From the sequence record PQ374922.1: 64,000 nucleotides of DNA; one strand, written 5' to 3'. The DNA is from a phage. Made by a program: the position numbers and the translations under genes. Shown one piece after another: positions 4,319 through 61,658 of this stretch (the stretch's first letter is position 1; each line of letters begins with the position of its first letter). Under the pieces are notes generated by a model. It was not told the origin of the DNA. It did not search any database and was given only the letters and a program-made list of their open reading frames with translations.

Positions 4319-4933
4319 ATGACGATGACAACGTTGAAGGTCATGGCCTTGTCCGTGACCTTTACCATTGCCAGCGGGAATGTGCACGCTTCCCAAAGTA
4401 CCACCCAATGTGTTTATAATTTCTCCGAGCAACAACTTAATACGATGGCAACCGCCTATCACGTGGGCAAGACACAAGATCTTGGCTACACTCTGGCCGC
4501 CATATCTTGGCGTGAGAGCCGCGCTGGCGAAGATGTAGTGTCAATGCGATACGGCCTCAAGGCGGCCAACATGGGAGCCTTTCAGAACAAGGTGAAGACA
4601 GTTGGTGATCGCGAAGGTTGTAAGAATCGCAAGTGCTATGCCAATGTCGCTATAAAGTTGCTGACCGACCAAGAATATGCCGCGCAAGCCGCCCTCGATG
4701 AGATGCAGTTCTGGCTGACCTATCACAATCAGAATATCCGCAAATCCCTCTCCTCTTACAATGCTGGCTTCGCCCGTAATCCTGCATCGAACGCTTATGC
4801 TGCCGACGTCGTGAAGAAAGCTAAATATCTTCAGAAATGTGTGTCCTTCGAAGGCCGGACCATCTCCGAGGTAGATCCTCAGGTGATCGCCATGAACAAG
4901 CACACAATAGAGAAACTGAAGAGGACAAGATAA
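4319..4933 (+). CDS. secreted lytic transglycosylase-like protein (SLT-domain motifs)
   Basis: N-terminal signal-peptide-like segment (LKVMALSVTFTIASGNVHA); SLT family-1 motifs in order: ES (ISWRESRAG), GxxQ (MGAFQN), AYNAG (SYNAGF). Confidence 0.55.
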   Translation: MTMTTLKVMALSVTFTIASGNVHASQSTTQCVYNFSEQQLNTMATAYHVGKTQDLGYTLAAISWRESRAGEDVVSMRYGLKAANMGAFQNKVKTVGDREGCKNRKCYANVAIKLLTDQEYAAQAALDEMQFWLTYHNQNIRKSLSSYNAGFARNPASNAYAADVVKKAKYLQKCVSFEGRTISEVDPQVIAMNKHTIEKLKRTR

Positions 4934-5571
4934 TGAACATCACTCCATCTCAGGCCGGATATGAACATATCTTGGTCTTCATTGCTCTACAGGGTGCGAA
5001 GGAAGGCATCATCGTATCCGAGTACTCAGGTACGGTTCGCCTTGCTGATTATGTCGCACCGGAGGCATTTATCAAGAAGTGTATTGACGCATGGTGCCTC
5101 TATGCCCTCAGCACATACCCTGCTCCTCCTGAGGGTGAGCTGTTGTTTACTGTGCCGACTCCGGCTGTTGGCGATACAGACGCGATCTTTGCCGATATGC
5201 TGGCCAAGGGGTATTTGGTGTATGACCTCACCCACGATGTCTACTCCTTTACTTCGCTGAACACCGTGTTTGGATTCACCATCACATCTGAAGCCAACAT
5301 CCCTGACTGGGGTATTTTGGCGTGGGGCGTTGACGGTCTGGGTGCAACCTACGCATCGTCTGACGTCGGTGCGGTTCTGATTGATGAGGGTGTCACCATG
5401 GAGCAGTACCTTGCCCAGTTCCCTCAGCACAATATCACAGGCAGCGACATCATTTTGGTCCAGCCTGGCGCTATCGCTCTCCCCCGTTTGGTGGATGGAT
5501 TGAAGCCTCAGCTGAAGGACATCATCGCAGGTATTCGATCCCACATTCCGGTTGTGAATCTGACGCCGTAA
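4933..5571 (+). CDS. hypothetical protein
   Basis: ATG at 4933 overlaps upstream stop (TAATG); 212 aa; followed by hairpin terminator. Confidence 0.55.
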   Translation: MNITPSQAGYEHILVFIALQGAKEGIIVSEYSGTVRLADYVAPEAFIKKCIDAWCLYALSTYPAPPEGELLFTVPTPAVGDTDAIFADMLAKGYLVYDLTHDVYSFTSLNTVFGFTITSEANIPDWGILAWGVDGLGATYASSDVGAVLIDEGVTMEQYLAQFPQHNITGSDIILVQPGAIALPRLVDGLKPQLKDIIAGIRSHIPVVNLTP

Positions 5572-5585
5572 AAATAATTCAATAA

Positions 5586-5604
5586 AAGGGGCTTTCGCCC
5601 CTTT
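5586..5604 (+). terminator. intrinsic terminator
   Basis: GGGGC-TTTC-GCCCC hairpin followed by TTT; after gene ending 5571. Confidence 0.55.
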
Positions 5605-5678: not shown

Positions 5679-6014
5679 ATGACACAACTCAAGAACTTCA
5701 CCGCCGATGACATGTTTGCCTTCCAGGGTGCTGAGCACTTTGCTGACGGCTCTGTACCTCGCATCTACTACTTCTCCGACGAAGAGATGGAAGCGTTCTT
5801 CGACCTGATGGAAAAGGACTACGAATCGAGCGACTTCGTTTATATCATCCATCACGCTGAAGGACTGACCTTGGGTTGGACGGCCAACAACGAACCAGAA
5901 GAAGTAAACTTCCCTGAAGGTATCATGTCAGAGCGCGTCGAATATCTACTGGAAGCCCTGGACCCCCACACCCTCCCGCTCTGGGCGATGTCTGTAGCCC
6001 AAGTTCAAAAATAA
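5679..6014 (+). CDS. hypothetical protein
   Basis: ATG 5679 preceded by conserved leader GGAACTATATC; acidic 111-aa product; downstream hairpin terminator. Confidence 0.55.
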   Translation: MTQLKNFTADDMFAFQGAEHFADGSVPRIYYFSDEEMEAFFDLMEKDYESSDFVYIIHHAEGLTLGWTANNEPEEVNFPEGIMSERVEYLLEALDPHTLPLWAMSVAQVQK

Positions 6015-6018
6015 GATA

Positions 6019-6040
6019 AGGGGGCTGACGCTCCCTTTTG
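6019..6040 (+). terminator. intrinsic terminator
   Basis: AGGGGGC-TGAC-GCTCCCT hairpin (one G-U pair) followed by TTTT. Confidence 0.5.
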
Positions 6041-6089
6041 GTTTCGCTAATTAGAAGAAACCGCCGTTAATTCAGTCAGGAGATATAAA

Positions 6090-9008
6090 ATGTCAAAGCT
6101 AAGTTTCCTCCAGTTCATGCAGGAAAGAGATCAGTTGGACGAAGCGTTCAACTCCGCTCCGTATGAGCTGACCATGGGCAAGAAGAACGCAGGCGATGTG
6201 TTCTTCACCTTCATCGACGAAGATGAAAAGGAATACCGTATTCAGTTCTATACCCCTCAGGGGCTGGGTAAGAGTGTTCGTCAGGTTTTCATCGGCCAGA
6301 AGCGCGGCTCCGTCTATCCTGACGCCATCGCTCGCTTCAAGAACCCAATGCGCGTTATCGCTTCCATGATCGAAGCGACCAAACAATTCATGGCGACTCC
6401 TCTGGGCAAGACCATCGATGGCTTTGCTGTCAACTTCTCTAAGAAAGCCCTGGATCGCGGTATGACCCTGATTCCTAAGATCATCCGCCAGTCCGGCCTG
6501 AAGCAGAAACTGAACGTCATGGACCTGACCTACGCGCCTGTTCCTGACCGTGGTTATGTGTGGCTAGTTCGTAAGGGTAAAGATCCGGCTCAGGTATTCG
6601 ACGGTCCGAAGATGCAGGGTATCACCTGGGATGATCCAGACAAAGTCGGTGACGTTCCGGTTCAGAACAATACTCCGGATGTGGGAGTTGGGGCTGGTTC
6701 TTCTGAAATCGAAGTCAACCGCGAGTGGTACAACAGCTCGGACACTGGTCTGGAGTTGAAGAGCGGGCGAGACCCGATTCGTGGAAATTACGTCCGTCTG
6801 ATAAGCGGTTCGAAAGAAGTAGCCACATTCTATGGTTATGATTTTGACAAATATCCAGACGGGACTGAGGTATCTTGGAATATGAAGCGCGGCTTCACCA
6901 ACCAAGACTTGGTCGGTGCGTCCATGACCAAACAGAAGAAAGGTATGTACGATCAGTACACTTTCAAGAAAGGTACTCAGATAATTCTGGTGGTGGACGT
7001 TGACACCAGCAATGACACCAGCAATGACACCAGCAATGGCAACGGATGGAAATTAACTTCAAACGGGGATCAGCCCATGTTGTTATGGGCTGGTAAGGAG
7101 AGAGGCCGCACGAACACGGCAAATATCGCTCCCCACTACAATGAGCCGGGCGTGTATGTTGGCGCATACATGAATGAGAAACCTGTGCGTGGGCAAAGTG
7201 CTGATTTCATTGCTCGTCAGTTGAAATTACCGCAAGTCCCTATCAATATCCTGAATGATTTCACCATGGCGTCTACAAAATTTTGGAAAGGTTCTCAAAA
7301 CAGTTCAGACAGAAATAACCCAGCCAACATTATCGGTTCTGGAACTGCTGTTATTGATGCCAAACGACTTGGTGCTCGAGAAGTAAACGTTGAACGATTC
7401 AAAAACGGTGTTCGCATGCGTTCTCAAAACGGTGACGTCGACATCAGTATTTCTGACCCAGACTTTTCAAATGCAGCAAGTGCGACTGATGCTGCTACTG
7501 CCTCTGTTGTGGTCAAGAACGGGCGTTACGAAGGTGCCATCAATTCAAAGCGCAAGATTGCCCGCACCTCGTACGAGCAGGGTACTGAATGGGATATCAT
7601 CGGTGTCAACGGGGAAACCCTTGTCTCTATCAAGTTGAACAAAGTGTCTAAATCCGCATCGGATTCGACCGAGGGTGCAACCAGTGTTGATCAATTACGT
7701 GACAGTGGTTTCATCGCTCGTGTTCTGGGTATCATTGATACCAACGTTGGGCTGGACACTTCTATTCTTCCTGGTGAAAACATCCGTCGCGTGGGCGCTG
7801 GTCGTTACACGACGGCAGGCGGGTTGGTTATCGTTGTCAACTTCACAAACGTCCTCGCTGGTTTCGTTCAATACTCAGTTTTCAGCGAAATTGCTGAAGA
7901 GGAGAACGTGGCCAAAGGTAGCGCCCGTGACGTCGCCAATGCGGTAATTGCGTCCATCTTTGAGGTTGCCAAGACCCAGTACACTGGGAAATGGGAAATT
8001 AGCGCAGTGCCAACAAGCGCTCCATATCCTATCAAAGCCATTCGCCGTTCTCGGGGCTGGGGTTATGTGGAAACCGCAAACTGGACTCTGACAGTGTCCG
8101 ACGCTGTCCTGAATCGTGTGAAGCCAGGGAAAACTGCCCTACTGGAACTCATCAAAGAACCTCCGCGTGGCAAGCACCCGCTGGAAATCATCCCAGAGAA
8201 GGGCGACAAGACCCTGATGCTGAAAGATCGTATTACCGGGGCCATCTATGGTTCTATCGACCTGAATGCCCAAGGCGCTGATCTGGTCAACTCTGGAACC
8301 CTGAAGATGCCACGCAACGCCATGGTGTTTGGTGAGACTGTCAACGGTATGTCCATTCGGTGGGATGTCAATTTCCCCGAAACGGGAAAATACGCCGGTG
8401 CTTCTATGATAACCAACGTGACCTATTACTACGACAAAGGTAAAGTTGCATTCACCCCAATTGTCTCTCAGAAAGGGCGTACCCTGAACAATCCGAAGAC
8501 ATATGAACTTCCTTTAAACAAAGATATGGTCCAGAGTGTGATTGATGAGATTTCATCAAAAATGGAATATCTTTCCAGAAACCTCCAACAGTTGAAAAGT
8601 CAGTCATACAACCCAAACCAGGTGTTCTTGAACGATATAACCATCACGGATAAAGGTGAAGTGATTTGGAATGATTACAACTTGTCTGACGGCAAAGTTA
8701 CACAAATTATGCTGTCCATGATAAGCGCAGAAAATAAACGTCTAGAGAAAGTGGCAAACAAGCCGGATATCAATATCACATTGCCAAAGAAACAAGCTGA
8801 AGTGATAGAATTTATAAACCGGATGATCGACATTGATCTCACCCCTTATGTGAGAACCCCCAAAAAACGTGATGTGGTATTATTTGACTCTTCTGAATTG
8901 TCGATGAACCAACTCAACAACATAGAACGCCTGGGAAGAGAAACAGGAAAATGGTCTCTTCAGTCAAACGGCGGTATGGGTCATGCACTATTTCTGAATG
9001 TTTGGTGA
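6090..9008 (+). CDS. large hypothetical protein (972 aa) with internal (DTSN)x3 repeat
   Basis: Uninterrupted 2.9-kb ORF with good SD (AGGAG) upstream; flanked by hairpins; no catalytic motif recognised; 3-prime third is AT-richer than the rest. Confidence 0.65.
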   Translation: MSKLSFLQFMQERDQLDEAFNSAPYELTMGKKNAGDVFFTFIDEDEKEYRIQFYTPQGLGKSVRQVFIGQKRGSVYPDAIARFKNPMRVIASMIEATKQFMATPLGKTIDGFAVNFSKKALDRGMTLIPKIIRQSGLKQKLNVMDLTYAPVPDRGYVWLVRKGKDPAQVFDGPKMQGITWDDPDKVGDVPVQNNTPDVGVGAGSSEIEVNREWYNSSDTGLELKSGRDPIRGNYVRLISGSKEVATFYGYDFDKYPDGTEVSWNMKRGFTNQDLVGASMTKQKKGMYDQYTFKKGTQIILVVDVDTSNDTSNDTSNGNGWKLTSNGDQPMLLWAGKERGRTNTANIAPHYNEPGVYVGAYMNEKPVRGQSADFIARQLKLPQVPINILNDFTMASTKFWKGSQNSSDRNNPANIIGSGTAVIDAKRLGAREVNVERFKNGVRMRSQNGDVDISISDPDFSNAASATDAATASVVVKNGRYEGAINSKRKIARTSYEQGTEWDIIGVNGETLVSIKLNKVSKSASDSTEGATSVDQLRDSGFIARVLGIIDTNVGLDTSILPGENIRRVGAGRYTTAGGLVIVVNFTNVLAGFVQYSVFSEIAEEENVAKGSARDVANAVIASIFEVAKTQYTGKWEISAVPTSAPYPIKAIRRSRGWGYVETANWTLTVSDAVLNRVKPGKTALLELIKEPPRGKHPLEIIPEKGDKTLMLKDRITGAIYGSIDLNAQGADLVNSGTLKMPRNAMVFGETVNGMSIRWDVNFPETGKYAGASMITNVTYYYDKGKVAFTPIVSQKGRTLNNPKTYELPLNKDMVQSVIDEISSKMEYLSRNLQQLKSQSYNPNQVFLNDITITDKGEVIWNDYNLSDGKVTQIMLSMISAENKRLEKVANKPDINITLPKKQAEVIEFINRMIDIDLTPYVRTPKKRDVVLFDSSELSMNQLNNIERLGRETGKWSLQSNGGMGHALFLNVW
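7002..7037 (+). repeat. in-frame tandem repeat (GACACCAGCAAT)x3 encoding (DTSN)x3
   Basis: Three perfect 12-nt units inside the 972-aa ORF. Confidence 0.9.
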
Positions 9009-9082
9009 AACCAGCTGGACTTGAGAACAGAATAAAGCCCCTCCGGGGGCTAATTACATCTAAATCCCCGAGGAGAGATCCA

Positions 9083-9388
9083 ATGAAACCGTTTATCGAA
9101 TATTTTAAAGAACAAGCCGCTAAACCTCAGACCCATGCTGGTGTCCAGGGTAAGACCGTATCCATCACCAAGCAAGCTGACGGCACTCAGTGGTGTTCCG
9201 GCGCTACCGTGACCCAGATCACTCCTGACAATCAGGCGGATATCTACAACCTGGAGTTAACCAACGGCAACACCATCAAGGTGAAGCTGACCCCAGACCA
9301 GACTCACGGTATCTCCCAAGGTCAGGAAGTCGTTGCTGTCCATGACGGTTTCGAATTCTTCTTTGGCAAGTCTGTCGACAAAGACTAA
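9083..9388 (+). CDS. hypothetical protein
   Basis: ATG 9083 with strong SD GAGGAG; 101 aa; followed by strong intrinsic terminator. Confidence 0.6.
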   Translation: MKPFIEYFKEQAAKPQTHAGVQGKTVSITKQADGTQWCSGATVTQITPDNQADIYNLELTNGNTIKVKLTPDQTHGISQGQEVVAVHDGFEFFFGKSVDKD

Positions 9389-9428
9389 GTGAAACCATCA
9401 AGATGACCCTGGTCAAGCCGTGATTACA

Positions 9429-9460
9429 ATCCCCCTAAATACAGGGGGATTTCTTTTTCT
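9429..9460 (+). terminator. intrinsic terminator
   Basis: ATCCCCC-loop-GGGGGAT hairpin followed by TTCTTTTTCT. Confidence 0.65.
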
Positions 9461-9472
9461 GAGGACAACATC

Positions 9473-9826
9473 ATGGTCAATGCGAGTATTTTCATCAACC
9501 GTGGACTGCTTGCTATAGCCCACTCTCATGCCTTACACTTCGTTACAACGTCCTATGCCAAGCACAAGGCACTCGGGGAGTTCTACGGGGATCTAGAGGA
9601 CTTGCTGGACACGTTTACCGAAGCATACATCGGTGCGGGTGGTCAGTATGTTCCATCATTCGAGAATATCAAATTGTACAACCCAGACCCTATCTCCTAT
9701 ATTAACAGTGTGGTGATAGACGTCGATGGCATCTACAAGCAGTGTGACTCCCACCTTCAGAGCACTCTTGACGATATCAAGACACTGTGCTATCAGACGA
9801 TCTACAAACTGAAGCAGCTGTCGTAA
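9473..9826 (+). CDS. hypothetical protein
   Basis: 117-aa ORF, SD GAGGA upstream; no motif assigned. Confidence 0.5.
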   Translation: MVNASIFINRGLLAIAHSHALHFVTTSYAKHKALGEFYGDLEDLLDTFTEAYIGAGGQYVPSFENIKLYNPDPISYINSVVIDVDGIYKQCDSHLQSTLDDIKTLCYQTIYKLKQLS

Positions 9827-9883: not shown

Positions 9884-10495
9884 ATGAGCAAAATCTTTAT
9901 CCCGTCACACCGCGAAGGATGTGAAATCGCGGCCAACTACCTGCGCGGTCGCATGAACTGCGGCGCTGTCTTCATCGAGCCAAATTCGTTTGACAACAAA
10001 GAATCACCTGATGCCATCGGGTTCCGTTCCGGCGGTTGCTCTATCCTGATGGAAGTGAAGGTGTCTCGCTCTGATTTCCTTACCGACAAGAAGAAGCCCC
10101 ATCGGATGGACCCCACAACAGGTATGGGCGCATACCGCTTTTATGTCTGCCCTCAGGAAGTAATCAGGGTTGAAGACCTACCACCAAAGTGGGGGTTGTT
10201 CTACTTCACACCCCGCAAGTCCCTGATGCCAGTTCATGTGCCAGACATGCAGTACTCTTCATTGTCATCACCGGAGCATTATCAGAAGTACCTTGATGAA
10301 CAGATCAAGAGAGGAAGAACCGTTACCCGGCATATGCGCAGCTACATGGAACTCCTCGACGGCTTCGCCCACTTTGAGCGCAACATGGCTGGGGAACAGA
10401 ATATCCTGTATGGGGCTTGGCGTCAACTGTGTATAGCTCAAAGTCGTGGTGTAGACTATACTGTGACCGAAGTGTTCCAGAGGCCGAAGATCTAA
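9884..10495 (+). CDS. PD-(D/E)xK nuclease-fold protein (VRR-NUC-like motif)
   Basis: Motif SPDAIGF ... ILMEVKVSRSD matches PD...(D/E)xK core; SD AAGGA 7 nt upstream of ATG 9884. Confidence 0.5.
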   Translation: MSKIFIPSHREGCEIAANYLRGRMNCGAVFIEPNSFDNKESPDAIGFRSGGCSILMEVKVSRSDFLTDKKKPHRMDPTTGMGAYRFYVCPQEVIRVEDLPPKWGLFYFTPRKSLMPVHVPDMQYSSLSSPEHYQKYLDEQIKRGRTVTRHMRSYMELLDGFAHFERNMAGEQNILYGAWRQLCIAQSRGVDYTVTEVFQRPKI

Positions 10496-11151
10496 TGAAC
10501 TATCAAAAAATTCATGACGCTATAATAACCAGAGCCAGAGATAGAATTTTAACTGGTTACAAGGAAAAACACCACGTCATCCCTCTATCTCTTGGTGGTG
10601 AAGACAGGAACTACAATAAAGTTTCTCTCACAGCATCTGAACATTATATTATTCATCTTCTGTTGGCCAAAATTCACGGCGGGGTAATGGTCAGCGCATT
10701 TAAAAAGATGCGCCACTTGACCTCTAATCCTCCAAACAATAAAGAGTTTGCCGTCAGGAGGGAATTGTTGTGTACAACAGCCGGGGAGAAAGCGAAAGAT
10801 CCACAAAAACGGAAAAGGCATTCTCTGAAAATGAAGGGTAGAAACCATACAGAATCTGCCAAATTATCAATATCCAATTCCATGACTGGGGAGAATAACC
10901 CAATGAAGGGGATACCTGCATGGAGGAACCCGACCAACATCAGCCGAGGAACTCATAAAAATTGGTTGGCGGCTGGAGAAATTTATGACTTGTACGTCAC
11001 AGGGAAATTTTTAAGAGTTATCGACCTCTTCAATGCTTGCAAATTGCCGACATCATACGGAACGGTTTCCACCATAAAAACAAAATTGGAATTGGGTTGG
11101 GAGCCAAGGAAAGACGCGGATTGGTTGCAATTCTATGAGGAACACAAATGA
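10495..11151 (+). CDS. HNH homing endonuclease
   Basis: HNH motif HHVIPLSLGG...N...LTASEH; AT-rich relative to neighbours; inserted between nuclease ORF and primase with TAATG/ATGA overlaps. Confidence 0.7.
   Translation: MNYQKIHDAIITRARDRILTGYKEKHHVIPLSLGGEDRNYNKVSLTASEHYIIHLLLAKIHGGVMVSAFKKMRHLTSNPPNNKEFAVRRELLCTTAGEKAKDPQKRKRHSLKMKGRNHTESAKLSISNSMTGENNPMKGIPAWRNPTNISRGTHKNWLAAGEIYDLYVTGKFLRVIDLFNACKLPTSYGTVSTIKTKLELGWEPRKDADWLQFYEEHK
10495..11151 (+). mobile_element. free-standing homing endonuclease gene (HEG)
   Basis: Intergenic HNH ORF with lower GC than flanking replication genes. Confidence 0.5.
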
Positions 11152-28722: not shown

Positions 28723-29472
28723 ATGTCACAAATTTATCGTATGTTCGGGTTAGAGTTTACCCCAGCTCGCCTTGATATGAAACTCCCAAATTTTGAAAAG
28801 AGTGGATTCGAAGTCGGTTGTGTTCTGGGTTTCGATCGAAACGGCAGATTCGTTCGCGAACAAAATATTTTCGATGTTCTGGGTGTGAAACCGGACAGTG
28901 AAACAGCAATCCGCTTCGAAGAGGACATCCGTTTTGGTCATTCCGACCTGTACGATTATGTCCGTGATGTGATCGCTGGTTATGAACAAGCTAAAGCACA
29001 CATGAAGATGGCCACCGATGCATGCCTGAAACTGGCGCATTGTCTATACTTCTTTGGTCGCAAGCGTCAGAATCTCGATATGGTATTCCCATCGGAACTG
29101 CTTGAACGCTTCTCTGAAACCGAATTCCTGCTGAAGCAAGCCGACGGAGTTGCTGTCAAATCTAGTGAAGTATTCAAATACCCGATAAATCTGGTGTCTG
29201 GGCATCTGCTGGTAGGGCGTGATCAGGTCGACCTGGCGATTCATCCGGATATGGAGTATGATCAGAACTCCTGTCGTGCCATCCACAACTACGTAGGTGT
29301 CATTCTAGAAAACTTGTACTCAGCCATGGAAGAAGTGATGGCAGCAGAACAACAGGAAGAAGTGATTCGTCGTATCCGCGAAGATATCGAAGGGAAGGTG
29401 AAACAGGATGTTCTAGGGGAATATCCACCAGAGTATTTCCCTGAAGTTCCAAACTTCTACTTGTCCAAATAA
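28723..29472 (+). CDS. hypothetical protein
   Basis: 249 aa; no motif assigned. Confidence 0.5.
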   Translation: MSQIYRMFGLEFTPARLDMKLPNFEKSGFEVGCVLGFDRNGRFVREQNIFDVLGVKPDSETAIRFEEDIRFGHSDLYDYVRDVIAGYEQAKAHMKMATDACLKLAHCLYFFGRKRQNLDMVFPSELLERFSETEFLLKQADGVAVKSSEVFKYPINLVSGHLLVGRDQVDLAIHPDMEYDQNSCRAIHNYVGVILENLYSAMEEVMAAEQQEEVIRRIREDIEGKVKQDVLGEYPPEYFPEVPNFYLSK

Positions 29473-29492
29473 CTCCACTGTGAGAGGTGTGT

Positions 29493-29768
29493 ATGAAACG
29501 TTATCTGAAGCTGACGACTGTCCTTGAGTCGATCATAGAGTATTTCATCATGCAACACCTCCGCGCTGACAACATGCATTTAGACGGTTGCCTGACGTAT
29601 GACCACAAGATCATTGTCCATTCTGTTGAAGTGGTGGATGATGATCTGATGATTGCAAATGTAGAACACTGTCTGTTTGATGAGTCGGTTGATGCGTACT
29701 GCCAACCACGGTTCGCAAAAGTCGAGCTAACAAATTGTTGGCCGCCGGAAATGGTTTTTCTATATTGA
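29493..29768 (+). CDS. hypothetical protein
   Basis: ATG 29493 after GAGAGG SD; 91 aa. Confidence 0.45.
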   Translation: MKRYLKLTTVLESIIEYFIMQHLRADNMHLDGCLTYDHKIIVHSVEVVDDDLMIANVEHCLFDESVDAYCQPRFAKVELTNCWPPEMVFLY

Positions 29769-35623: not shown

Positions 35624-36106
35624 ATGTTAACACAACAGTCTCTTAAAGAAATTCTGCATTACGACGAAGACACTGGGTGGTTTACATGGCTGACGGATCG
35701 TGGTGGTACTGCCAAAGCCGGAACAAGAGCTGGGTCTTTAAAACCTGACGGATACAGGGTTATAAGAATCGGCGAGAAGAAGCATTTAGAACACAGGTTG
35801 GCATTTCTCTATAAAACTGGTTCATGGCCAAAGAAATTGGTCGACCACAAAAATCGTATAAGAGACGACAACCGCTGGTTGAACCTTAGAGAATCTAATG
35901 AAAGCCAGAATGCCGTCAACACAGATTTGTATAGCCACAACACCACAGGCGCGAGGGGTGTATTTCGATACAAGAATAGATGGTGTGTGCAAATCAGAGT
36001 TAATGGGAAATATAGATCGTTTGGGTATTACGATGAATTCGAAGAAGCAAAGGAAATGGCGAACAAAGCCTACAAAGAATTGTTCGGAGAATTTTATCAA
36101 GGTTAG
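35624..36106 (+). CDS. HNH homing endonuclease with AP2-type DNA-binding domain
   Basis: HNH core DHKNRIRDDNRWLNLRE and C-terminal AP2-like GVFRYKNRWCVQIRVNGKYRSFGYYDEFEEA; AT-rich; inserted between uvsX region and gp41. Confidence 0.75.
   Translation: MLTQQSLKEILHYDEDTGWFTWLTDRGGTAKAGTRAGSLKPDGYRVIRIGEKKHLEHRLAFLYKTGSWPKKLVDHKNRIRDDNRWLNLRESNESQNAVNTDLYSHNTTGARGVFRYKNRWCVQIRVNGKYRSFGYYDEFEEAKEMANKAYKELFGEFYQG
35624..36106 (+). mobile_element. free-standing homing endonuclease gene (HEG)
   Basis: Intergenic HNH-AP2 ORF of lower GC between conserved replication genes. Confidence 0.5.
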
Positions 36107-60477: not shown

Positions 60478-61287
60478 TTAGACCGCAGCCATTTCGCAAC
60501 GAGTAGAGGTCACAGAGTGGCCGTCAGCGTCTTCAACAACACACCAGTACTCACCCTCGTTTTCGGCAGCAACTGCAGTGATAACCAGGCTCGCAGTTGC
60601 AGCAGTGGGGTTAGTGCCAGCATCGATCACCTCACCTTCACCACCAGGGACATCAGAGAAGTACCAAGTATGTGTGTATGGGGTAGTGCCGCCTGTAGCA
60701 GCGATGGTGAAGGTTGCGGATTCACCTGTTGTTACATCCTGAGAAGCGGCCAGATCGGTAGACAGAGACAGAGCGCCAGCCACTGTGATGACGGTAGAGT
60801 CAGTGTGGTCACCTTCGATGGTTACACCGTAAACAGTCACTGAACCCGGCGCCAGTAGCTTGAATTTACCACCACCGATGTGCACAGCTTTGGTCAGATC
60901 GCCAGAGTACCAGTTGACACCCTGGTAGGTCGCGTTCTCCGGAGCGACGACCGCCTTCAGTTCAACAACCTGACCGACTTCACCATTAGCAGTTTCAGGG
61001 GTGATGGTCAGGCCAGTGGTCAGTACAGCGCTTGGGTCGTGGATTTCATAAGACAGCTGGAAGCCAACGGGCTTGGTTGGATCCACTTTGGTGACGCCAT
61101 CGGCCTGCAAATTGCTCTTGGTCAGCAGTGCATCCAGACCTTTACACTCAGTCAGGATCTCGTCTGGGTCTTGGTTAAGACTGGTCTTTTCCCAACCCCG
61201 AGCAGTACCTGTTACAGTGTGAAGACGCTCAGTTTCCGGTTTGTTGCGAACAACTTCCGGTGCTACTAATACAGTGATCGTTGGCAT
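60478..61287 (-). CDS. Ig-like domain virion decoration protein (Hoc-like)
   Basis: ATG 61287 with GGAGGAA SD; Big_2-like segment (ATYQGVNWYSGD) and C-terminal I-set Ig-like domain (GEYWCVVEDADGHSVTSTRCE). Confidence 0.55.
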   Translation of the reverse strand: MPTITVLVAPEVVRNKPETERLHTVTGTARGWEKTSLNQDPDEILTECKGLDALLTKSNLQADGVTKVDPTKPVGFQLSYEIHDPSAVLTTGLTITPETANGEVGQVVELKAVVAPENATYQGVNWYSGDLTKAVHIGGGKFKLLAPGSVTVYGVTIEGDHTDSTVITVAGALSLSTDLAASQDVTTGESATFTIAATGGTTPYTHTWYFSDVPGGEGEVIDAGTNPTAATASLVITAVAAENEGEYWCVVEDADGHSVTSTRCEMAAV

Positions 61288-61658
61288 GGTTTCCTCCACT
61301 CATCCAAATCGTTGTTCAGAGCCATCATCAGCTCATTATCTGGTTCGTATGAACCGGAACATAAATCATCGCGCCATACGCCTAATGTCAACAAAGCAGC
61401 CTTGAGGCGTGGCAACTGGGTCTTATCCACCTTCAAAACGAGCATGCGGCAAGCAGCCTCTGTTTCGAACGTATTGAAGACAGTAATCAATTGATTGAGA
61501 ATCAACCGAGGACTCTTACCAGGGACAAATCTCTTCAATGATTGATTAATTAGCGAAATCCGCTGAATGTCTACCAGCAGTTCATCCCACGAGACAGAAT
61601 CTACAATATAATGCCTCAGTGCATAATCCATCAAGTTGCTTTCGTCAACGATAGGCAT
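61266..61658 (-). CDS. hypothetical protein
   Basis: 130 aa; overlaps Ig-like gene start by 22 nt. Confidence 0.45.
   Translation of the reverse strand: MPIVDESNLMDYALRHYIVDSVSWDELLVDIQRISLINQSLKRFVPGKSPRLILNQLITVFNTFETEAACRMLVLKVDKTQLPRLKAALLTLGVWRDDLCSGSYEPDNELMMALNNDLDEWRKPCQRSLY

Follow-up and report, generated by a model that had tools for sequence, protein, structure and literature searches.

Each T4 head contains about 40 molecules of Alt (gpAlt, PHROG 802), an RNA polymerase ADP-ribosyltransferase (ART) that gp21 cleaves at both ends and that is ejected (PMC9026906; PMC5694885). At the N-terminus, six residues are removed at ITE-6 by this prohead protease (GenBank X15811 note; PMC5694885; PMC9026906). 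The internal head proteins of T-even phages (Ips; T4 Ip1-Ip3, the Ip5-Ip14 series, and Ip9 of Dhakavirus and Moonvirus, PHROG 7673) are small (8-20 kDa) single-domain proteins that rely on a 10-residue capsid targeting sequence (CTS) alone. T4 Ip1-3 are injected and inhibit distinct type IV restriction enzymes of the GmrSD type (PMC12373910). In MuF polymorphic toxins and 'polyvalent proteins' (Jamet et al.; Iyer, Aravind et al.), a conserved head-associated N-terminal carrier is combined with interchangeable effectors that are packaged and injected. Here we analyse a stretch of 64,000 nucleotides (nt) of phage DNA (sequence record PQ374922.1; hereafter the window) and, within it, an open reading frame (ORF) of 972 amino acids (aa). 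Our analysis makes it reasonably probable that the ORF product is a head-internal, protease-processed and probably injected Alt-like carrier of exchangeable cargo modules.

The ORF and its family

The gene under study is the following:

6090..9008, + strand: ORF of 972 aa, 107.7 kDa, isoelectric point (pI) 9.0, PHROG 3867.

The existence of this ORF, proposed in the initial annotation of the window, was borne out: it starts with an ATG, with AGGAG 6 nt upstream, and is 99.9% identical to its counterpart in Escherichia phage YX22. By its sequence, the window belongs to a phage of the Ackermannviridae (Aglimvirinae), and the genes around the ORF come in the order gp55, gp47, gp46, small genes, the ORF, and then gp61 primase, PhoH and NrdA. 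The locus had been described as a T4-like early region, which fails in view of these neighbours and of a phage that is not one of the T4-like Straboviridae. It had also been called an ORFan. This does not hold either: we recovered 276 matches among 5.8 billion proteins searched and 180 phage records by megablast, and the N-terminal domain recurs in ~70 further 50%-identity clusters.

The whole product matches PHROG 3867 ('unknown function'; Ackermannviridae) with an E of 5e-300 and 998.7 bits. Searches with the full-length product returned zero families from Pfam (none at E<=1) and NCBIfam, and a single match in PDB sequences, a chance dockerin/Ig hit (E 0.015). The earlier statement that no recognisable motif is present is hence correct for Pfam and NCBIfam, but not at the level of profiles and structures, where an Alt N-terminal domain (Alt-N) and an Ip9 module were found.

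The family and its association with virions are already known, under the description 'unknown structural protein'. LIMEstone1 ORF081/082, Sajous1 gp214, CBA120 orf111 and Det7 gp73 (all PHROG 3867) are true orthologues from Ackermannviridae, located at the same locus and with N-domains that are 85-94% identical. Earlier work had placed no PHROG 3867 orthologue in the Alt family or in the head interior. The literature searched describes neither the connection to the Alt N-domain nor the predicted site of processing, the Ip9 module or the census of modules, and it gave nothing on head-internal proteins of Ackermannviridae.

The N-terminal domain aligns with that of T4 Alt

The conserved part that defines the family is located at the N-terminus:

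6144..6644, + strand: Alt-N-like alpha/beta domain, aa 19-185.

In a HMMER search of 1.84 billion cluster representatives, only aa ~15-180 were kept in ~70 distant proteins, whose lengths range from 306 to 1439 aa. An ART domain (PF03496) lies downstream of the shared N-domain in 5 of 63 distant proteins, and a phmmer search with T4 Alt matched the ART domains of the distant members P0184, P0185, P0189 and P0208. These four are bridging members, in which the N-domain of the family is followed by an Alt-type ART; P0184, for instance, pairs the PHROG 3867 N-domain with the ART of PHROG 802 (Alt).

We then compared a family profile (45 N-termini) with an Alt profile built from 12 Alt N-termini of nine Straboviridae genera and Muldoonvirus. 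The hhalign comparison yielded 96.1% with an E of 3.3e-9 over 159 colinear columns, and paired residues 12-174 of the ORF with residues 1-176 of Alt, at a sequence identity to Alt N-domains of only about 16%. The signal depends on the depth of the Alt profile: the N-domain matched the single T4 Alt sequence weakly (6.7 bits with the hidden Markov model; probability 5.7% with hhalign), reached 41% with two Alt sequences and was convincing only with 12. A profile search of the N-domain against PDB sequences gave no match. A large protein search gave 6 matches with the N-domain alignment and 5 with the T4 Alt N-terminus, the latter revealing the PF26846 label that the Alt N-domain bears in precomputed annotations.

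An AlphaFold2 (AF2) model of aa 1-205, derived from 45 diverse family members, had a predicted local distance difference test (pLDDT) score of 87.6 and a predicted template modelling score of 0.79. When this model was searched against BFVD with Foldseek, family members ranked first and were followed by Alt proteins with E 1e-6 to 1e-4. The Alt matches came from the T4-like phages HY03, CF1, phiAS5, SP18, Henu6 and Melville (probability 1.0, template modelling score about 0.5-0.56). The Melville protein is 63% identical to residues 1-208 of T4 Alt and carries PF26846 in its precomputed annotation, without an ART. Since it has the Alt N-domain but no ART, the structural match is to the Alt N-domain and not to the enzyme. 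Further Foldseek matches of the N-domain were phage proteins described with deaminase, zeta-toxin or ParB domains. Profile alignment and structural model together indicate that the N-domain of the ORF is homologous to the N-terminal domain of T4 Alt.

The ART domain PF03496 itself is absent: Pfam gave no match at E<=1, and phmmer with T4 Alt found none in the ORF, where a weak N-terminal signal was its only match, or in any Ackermannviridae homologue. Because this domain was tested for and is absent, the ORF product is not an Alt enzyme. The two proteins thus share a domain of ~170 aa at the extreme N-terminus, and T4 Alt is likewise a large virion protein (as the orthologues of the ORF are) with a variable region behind its N-domain. 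They differ in that the ORF carries, in place of an ART, a cargo that is a chain of uncharacterised modules, and in that it belongs to Ackermannviridae and occupies another genomic position.

The domain at 6144-6644 also shows weak similarity to GNAT acetyltransferases (Foldseek E 0.02-0.04, probability about 0.85), with no acetyl-CoA motif evident; this structural similarity may bear on how the Alt N-domain arose in evolution. No second Alt-N paralogue was found in the window. Genes of the Alt-N type are often multiple per phage, with 2 places per record in Vibrio phages (for example OZ195733 and MW824370) and up to 4 in Aeromonas phage avDM10, which suggests that several different cargoes may be carried per virion.

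A predicted prohead protease site follows the leader

Ahead of this domain lies a short leader:

6090..6143, + strand: predicted propeptide, aa 1-18 (MSKLSFLQFMQERDQLDE), a CTS-like leader ending in L-x-E, defined by motif conservation and alignment to Alt.

Members of the family hardly differ in the motif L-x-E-[AS]-[FL]-[ND]-S-x-P-Y, in which E18 is more than 90% conserved and ahead of which lies a variable leader of 0-45 aa. The hhalign comparison places LDE18|AF of the ORF on the Alt motif L-N-E-V-F-D (ITE6|LFDE in T4), so that the ORF and T4 Alt share the position of a prohead protease motif of the form [LI]-x-E followed by [AVL]-F-[ND]. Because the motif aligns with the documented ITE-6 site of T4 Alt, we predict cleavage by the prohead protease after LDE18. 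The predicted mature protein would have its N-terminus at Ala19 and begin with AFNSAPYELTMGK.

Many leaders of the family look like the T4 CTS MKTYQEFIAE, as in MLNFQEFQELNE|AF. The leader of the ORF, MSKLSFLQFMQE, resembles it at the aromatic, hydrophobic and Glu positions and has the spacing F-x-Q-F-M-x-E, but misses the relaxed CTS pattern by a one-residue offset.

The region behind the N-domain is made of exchangeable modules

We mapped 120 homologues onto the ORF by BLAST and scored seven segments for presence. Breakpoints recur near aa 200, 310, 417, 517, 730 and 887, and delimit the following segments ahead of the C-terminal one, with counts out of the 120 homologues:

M1, aa 1-200: present in 116.
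6690..7019, + strand: M2, aa 201-310, present in 81; all-beta in a low-confidence model; ends in a TSNDTSNDTSNGNG linker.
7020..7340, + strand: M3, aa 311-417, present in 109; 62% identical in Sajous1 gp214.
7341..7640, + strand: M4, aa 418-517, an indel module present in 67, located over the internal stretch with low GC content at third codon positions (GC3).
7641..8279, + strand: M5, aa 518-730, present in 110; alpha+beta, pLDDT about 80-90.
8280..8750, + strand: M6, aa 731-887, present in 117; accounts for the majority of invariant columns outside the N-domain, and its second half lies in the AT-rich allele.

Our results show 21 architectures among the 120 homologues, with aa 201-310, 418-517 and 888-972 coming and going independently. 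The orthologues differ in the same way: LIMEstone1 shares the N-domain only, and Sajous1 has M1, M3, M5 and M6 followed by a tail of 128 aa (tail-A) and not by the Ip9-like module. Pfam found no domains in nine architectural variants, and no significant internal repeats were detected between modules. For aa 201-972, AF2 gave a model of moderate quality (pLDDT 70.7, and 80-90 over aa 530-830); its comparison with PDB by Foldseek returned only noise and no recognisable fold. The idea of a polyprotein was considered and rejected, as there are no prohead protease motifs at the module boundaries.

The C-terminal module is homologous to Ip9

The last segment could be assigned:

8751..9005, + strand: M7, aa 888-972, present in 42 of 120; homologue of the mature T-even internal head protein Ip9.

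Residues 896-969 align with residues 17-89 of Ip9 from Dhakavirus VR5 with 36% identity over 74 aa (E 2e-15). In VR5, residues 17-89 represent the whole mature protein behind the CTS MKTYQEFIAE, so that the C-terminal 75 aa of the ORF are homologous to an entire mature Ip9. The profile phrog_7673, 'internal head protein', was matched by the whole ORF (E 9e-11) and by its isolated tail (E 4e-12), and tblastn retrieved the ip9 genes of many T-even relatives (Dhakavirus, Moonvirus and others). The setting of the module is different from that of the T-even Ips: instead of a small single-domain protein behind a CTS, the ORF encodes a protein of 108 kDa with at least seven segments and bears Ip9 at its tail.

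What follows M6 was classified in 118 homologues. Tail-A was found in 73, the Ip9-like tail of 85 aa alone in 29 (including the ORF), the Ip9-like module together with tail-A in 14, and another module with tail-A in 2. In the lineage of the ORF, the Ip9-like module hence stands in place of the usual C-terminal tail. The simplest history, judged from these arrangements, would be that the Ip9-like module was inserted before tail-A and that tail-A was then lost in the lineage of the ORF. No nucleotide similarity of the 3' segment to T-even phages was found, which argues for an old transfer of Ip9; the ip9 gene of VR5 has 29% GC. Homologues that are longer by 127 aa were also considered as read-through fusions with the downstream gene, which was rejected, the extra part being the usual tail-A.

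Orthologues are abundant virion proteins

In LIMEstone1, ORF081 and ORF082 are 'confirmed structural proteins' by mass spectrometry (MS), with 23 and 4 unique peptides, respectively. ORF81, with 55% coverage from its 23 unique peptides, is second only to the tail sheath. The authors place it in a cluster (ORF78-85) of virion proteins without functional prediction, and report that every unknown structural protein has a structural counterpart in ViI. We found that a frameshift inside the N-domain divides a single gene into ORF082 and ORF081: aa 1-104 of the ORF are matched by ORF082 with 94% identity and aa 157-205 by the start of ORF081 with 84%, the remaining cargo being different. In the CsCl-purified Salmonella phage Sajous1, gp214 was detected with 196 spectra and is among the five best-represented virion proteins. 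This protein is orthologous to the ORF, being encoded at the same locus, with 86% identity in the N-domain, the 62% given above for M3, and 35% over 365 aa of M5-M6.

Annotators have divided the orthologue into two ORFs in LIMEstone1 and three in Ag3, the break falling inside the N-domain, and both LIMEstone1 fragments were detected by MS. The split could be due to a sequencing error, a pseudogene or programmed frameshifting.

Base composition and recombination at the 3' end

The initial annotation had pointed to an AT-rich 3' end and an AT-rich internal stretch, and had read both as signs of domain acquisition by recombination. The sliding-window check bears out the 3' end as significant: 8450-9008 has 39.9% GC, compared with a window mean of 49.3% (standard deviation 2.9% for stretches of 559 nt), more than 3 standard deviations below it. 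Only 0.25% of 559-nt stretches in the 64 kb are as GC-poor, and the 3' end of the ORF is the most AT-rich stretch of the window. The internal stretch, 7260-7500, is weak on total GC (44.0%, 10th percentile) but clear on GC3, which is 0.31 there, compared with 0.56-0.60 on either side, and is lowest (0.25) in aa 401-440. This low-GC3 stretch overlaps the indel module M4 (aa 418-517).

Comparison with relatives defined the 3' segment further:

8450..9082, + strand: AT-rich recombinant 3' segment including the intergenic hairpin, limited to YX22-like phages and a subset of Salmonella kutterviruses.

The first 2478 nt of the ORF are 96-97% identical to the Escherichia phages AV101, A221 and RPN242, which are without its 3' end. 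The AT-rich 3' 633 nt are present at full length in only 29 phage records (87-94% identity), mostly Salmonella kutterviruses (maane, Mansal, UTK0004, SKML-39). In LIMEstone1 and Ag3, the 3' end of the orthologue is not low in GC. Since the 3' end is missing from close Escherichia phages, its 633 nt are found in 29 records and the modules vary independently across 21 architectures, acquisition of domains by recombination is supported. Neither a uniform composition nor homology to a known structural protein along the whole length was observed.

Other low-GC islands of the window, at 21800-23200, 29400-29700 and 35700-36000, have 40-42% GC in 500-nt stretches, above the value of the 3' end of the ORF. 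A gene for an HNH homing endonuclease (phrog_655), at 10495-11151 on the + strand, lies in a low-GC stretch (40-43%) between an MmcB-like gene and the primase gene; the syntenic homing endonuclease of LIMEstone1 is F-LimV.

A proposed pathway and its alternatives

In the pathway that we propose, the protein would be made late and, judging from the homology to Alt, would enter the prohead core by means of its leader and Alt-N-like domain (aa 1-185). A gp21-type prohead protease would trim the leader after LDE18, as the aligned motif predicts. The mature protein of ~106 kDa, whose orthologues are abundant in virions, would presumably be held inside the DNA-filled head in tens of copies and, by analogy with Alt and the Ip proteins, would be ejected with the DNA on infection. 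Modules M2-M7, reshuffled by recombination among Ackermannviridae, would replace the ART of Alt behind the N-domain, and Ip9, which T-even phages deliver with a CTS of 10 residues, would here be carried by an Alt-like protein. One may speculate that the cargo acts in the first minutes of infection on host defences or in host take-over, for example by inhibiting modification-dependent restriction. The DNA of Ackermannviridae is hypermodified. Since T4 Ip1-3 inhibit GmrSD enzymes and the DNA of these phages carries such modifications, an anti-restriction or other anti-defence role is plausible by analogy for some of the modules. The ORF product had initially been proposed to be an injected internal protein, an ART or a host-takeover factor; the Alt-N domain, the Ip9-like C-terminus and the abundant virion orthologues favour a proposal of this kind, from which the ART has to be removed, no such domain being present.

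Several observations weigh against the pathway. No late promoter was identified 5' of the ORF, and the T4 late promoter TATAAATA is absent near the gene. The location in the head interior, the cleavage at E18 and the ejection are all predictions, drawn from sequence comparison and analogy. The proteomics of LIMEstone1 backs the carrier and not M2-M7, because only the N-domain is shared with the ORF. The 196 spectra of gp214 are high for an Alt-like copy number, and in the Sajous1 study this protein is called a 'tail completion protein' and belongs to a proposed 'ferrojan horse' operon borne on the tail. Finally, our literature search returned no paper on a function of the Alt N-domain in T4.

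One alternative is a structural function inside the head, in which the protein would not act as an effector in the host. It could be a component of the prohead core or scaffold, or condense DNA or modulate pressure, the variation of its modules reflecting neutral drift and recombination. High abundance in virions, a basic charge (pI 9.0 overall and 9.6 for the N-domain), the near-universal presence of M1 and M6 and the lack of any detected catalytic domain all fit such a role. However, Alt-N and Ip9 both derive from non-essential, ejected T-even proteins, distant relatives of the N-domain bear effector domains (ART and, by Foldseek description, deaminase, zeta-toxin and ParB), and the independent gain and loss of modules, together with the replacement of the C-terminus, look like arms-race turnover. 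We therefore judge a structural role to be rather unlikely. Less likely still is a protein that is external and associated with the tail, as in the published reading of the Sajous1 gp214-217 operon (tail completion protein, molybdate-binding protein, helicase and ferritin), in which a 'tail completion protein' loads ferritin and metal-binding proteins for entry through siderophore pathways (the 'ferrojan horse'). This annotation and hypothesis exist for an orthologue with 196 spectra, the GenBank record of phage D5lw names its orthologue a 'putative tail completion protein', and the ferritin-like neighbour is virion-associated. Yet the Sajous1 reading was built on low-confidence Phyre2 matches, and the tonB and feoB mutants of its authors showed no effect on infection. 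No tail-completion or terminator family was found in Pfam, PHROGs or NCBIfam, nor in the PDB fold searches of aa 201-972. Moreover, the N-domain is homologous to head-internal Alt, the C-terminus is a module of an internal head protein, and a protein held in the tail by fixed contacts would not usually show such extreme module turnover.

We consider it highly improbable that the ORF encodes a non-packaged early or middle host-takeover enzyme that contaminates virion preparations. The gene does sit among replication and recombination genes, and low-level contaminants (ligase, gp44) occur in the same proteomes, but 23 unique peptides with 55% coverage in LIMEstone1 and 196 spectra in Sajous1 are far above contaminants. 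As the orthologues rank among the top virion proteins, contamination is excluded.

The logic of an Alt-like carrier with exchangeable cargo is that of the MuF and polyvalent proteins, and a conserved N-terminal carrier with a polymorphic C-terminal cargo holds across the relatives of the ORF (~70 distant clusters; 21 architectures in 120). The carrier itself is unrelated, no Pfam or PHROG match to a MuF (SPP1 gp7) domain being found in the ORF product, and the cargo differs in having no recognisable toxin or enzyme fold. We tentatively raise the possibility, which we hold with less confidence than the carrier role itself, that the Alt N-domain is a general capsid-loading and delivery domain for polymorphic cargo, parallel to MuF, in several myovirus families (Straboviridae, Ackermannviridae, and phages of Vibrio, Aeromonas and Ralstonia), and that the Ackermannviridae protein is a 'polyvalent' concatenation of injected anti-defence modules traded between phage families. 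If this were true, Ip9 would be the first documented cargo to switch between the short-CTS and Alt-N delivery routes.

With the Alt-like carrier reading, a virion protein that is among the most abundant unexplained ones of Ackermannviridae, a family in wide use for biocontrol and therapy, acquires an identity that can be tested, and the published 'tail completion / ferrojan horse' interpretation gains a competitor. The reading also suggests that the region of T4 Alt ahead of the enzyme is a reusable head-delivery domain with many cargoes; this would make it easier to recognise injected effectors and anti-defence proteins among phage 'dark matter', and the domain could be used to package foreign proteins. 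Module turnover marks the locus as a probable arms-race hotspot, and the modules, Ip9 included, are candidate inhibitors of defences against incoming hypermodified DNA.

Neighbouring genes

The genes around the ORF include further homologues of virion proteins:

4319-4933, + strand: protein of 204 aa with a signal-peptide-like N-terminus (phrog_600; Vs.1-like in Ag3), 95% identical to LIMEstone1 ORF086.
4933..5571, + strand: virion-protein homologue, 96% identical to LIMEstone1 ORF085, which is MS-confirmed.
9083..9388, + strand: neighbouring gene of 101 aa with the start MKPFIEYFKE, a truncated homologue of the virion protein LIMEstone1 ORF080 / Sajous1 gp215.
9473..9826, + strand: ferritin/Dps-like protein (phrog_858, 'starvation-inducible regulator'; MobD.6-like in Ag3), corresponding to LIMEstone1 ORF078 and Sajous1 gp217.

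The gene at 9083-9388 has a genuine CTS-like start: MKPFIEYFKE is the sole match to the T4 CTS pattern in 760 six-frame segments of the window. Its product aligns at 93% identity with the first 100 aa of LIMEstone1 ORF080 (189 aa), and as it matches only these it is a truncated allele. The gene that comes next in relatives, ORF079/gp216, is missing after it. The ferritin-like protein has been found in virions, with 3 peptides for LIMEstone1 ORF078 and 10 spectra for Sajous1 gp217. The gene at 4319-4933 corresponds to Sajous1 gp211 by position and length; gp211 is named 'RegB RNA endonuclease' and was detected with 31 spectra, and the annotations conflict.

Stem-loops and a repeated octamer flank the ORF

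Four elements were located at the borders of the gene:

6018..6037, + strand: upstream GC-rich stem-loop with an 8 bp stem (-12.4 kcal/mol, z -2.1), followed by UUUUGGUUU (TTTTGGTTT; U-run).
6046..6053, + strand: GCTAATTA octamer, 44 nt 5' of the ATG and after the upstream hairpin.
9036..9051, + strand: downstream stem-loop AGCCCC-TCCG-GGGGCT (-13.2 kcal/mol, z -3.4).
9049-9056, + strand: second GCTAATTA copy, directly after the downstream stem-loop.

The hairpins that had been noticed on both sides of the ORF are thus real. The upstream one forms a terminator-like end of the preceding gene (5679-6014); no U-run follows the downstream one on the + strand. Comparable stem-loops separate every gene in the cluster 5679-9826, and since each gene of the cluster is bounded in this manner, the bracket is a property of the cluster and not of the ORF. 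The flanking hairpins do not establish the gene as monocistronic, as had been proposed. GC-rich stem-loops bracketing the genes of the virion-protein cluster are found at 5585-5604, 6018-6037, 9036-9051 and 9428-9451.

The octamer GCTAATTA occurs in 3 copies in the window, where 0.85 are expected, and two of them flank the ORF. At the site of the downstream copy, LIMEstone1 has TATAAATA, which its annotation lists as a late promoter, so that GCTAATTA may be a degenerate promoter element. Promoter-stem-loop cassettes have reportedly been proposed as mediators of gene shuffling in T4-like phages, and the arrangement of stem-loop and octamer around the ORF resembles them.

At a distance from this cluster, the gene at 60478-61299 on the - strand encodes a protein of 273 aa with an Ig-like repeat sequence, by which it is probably a Hoc-like head decoration protein.

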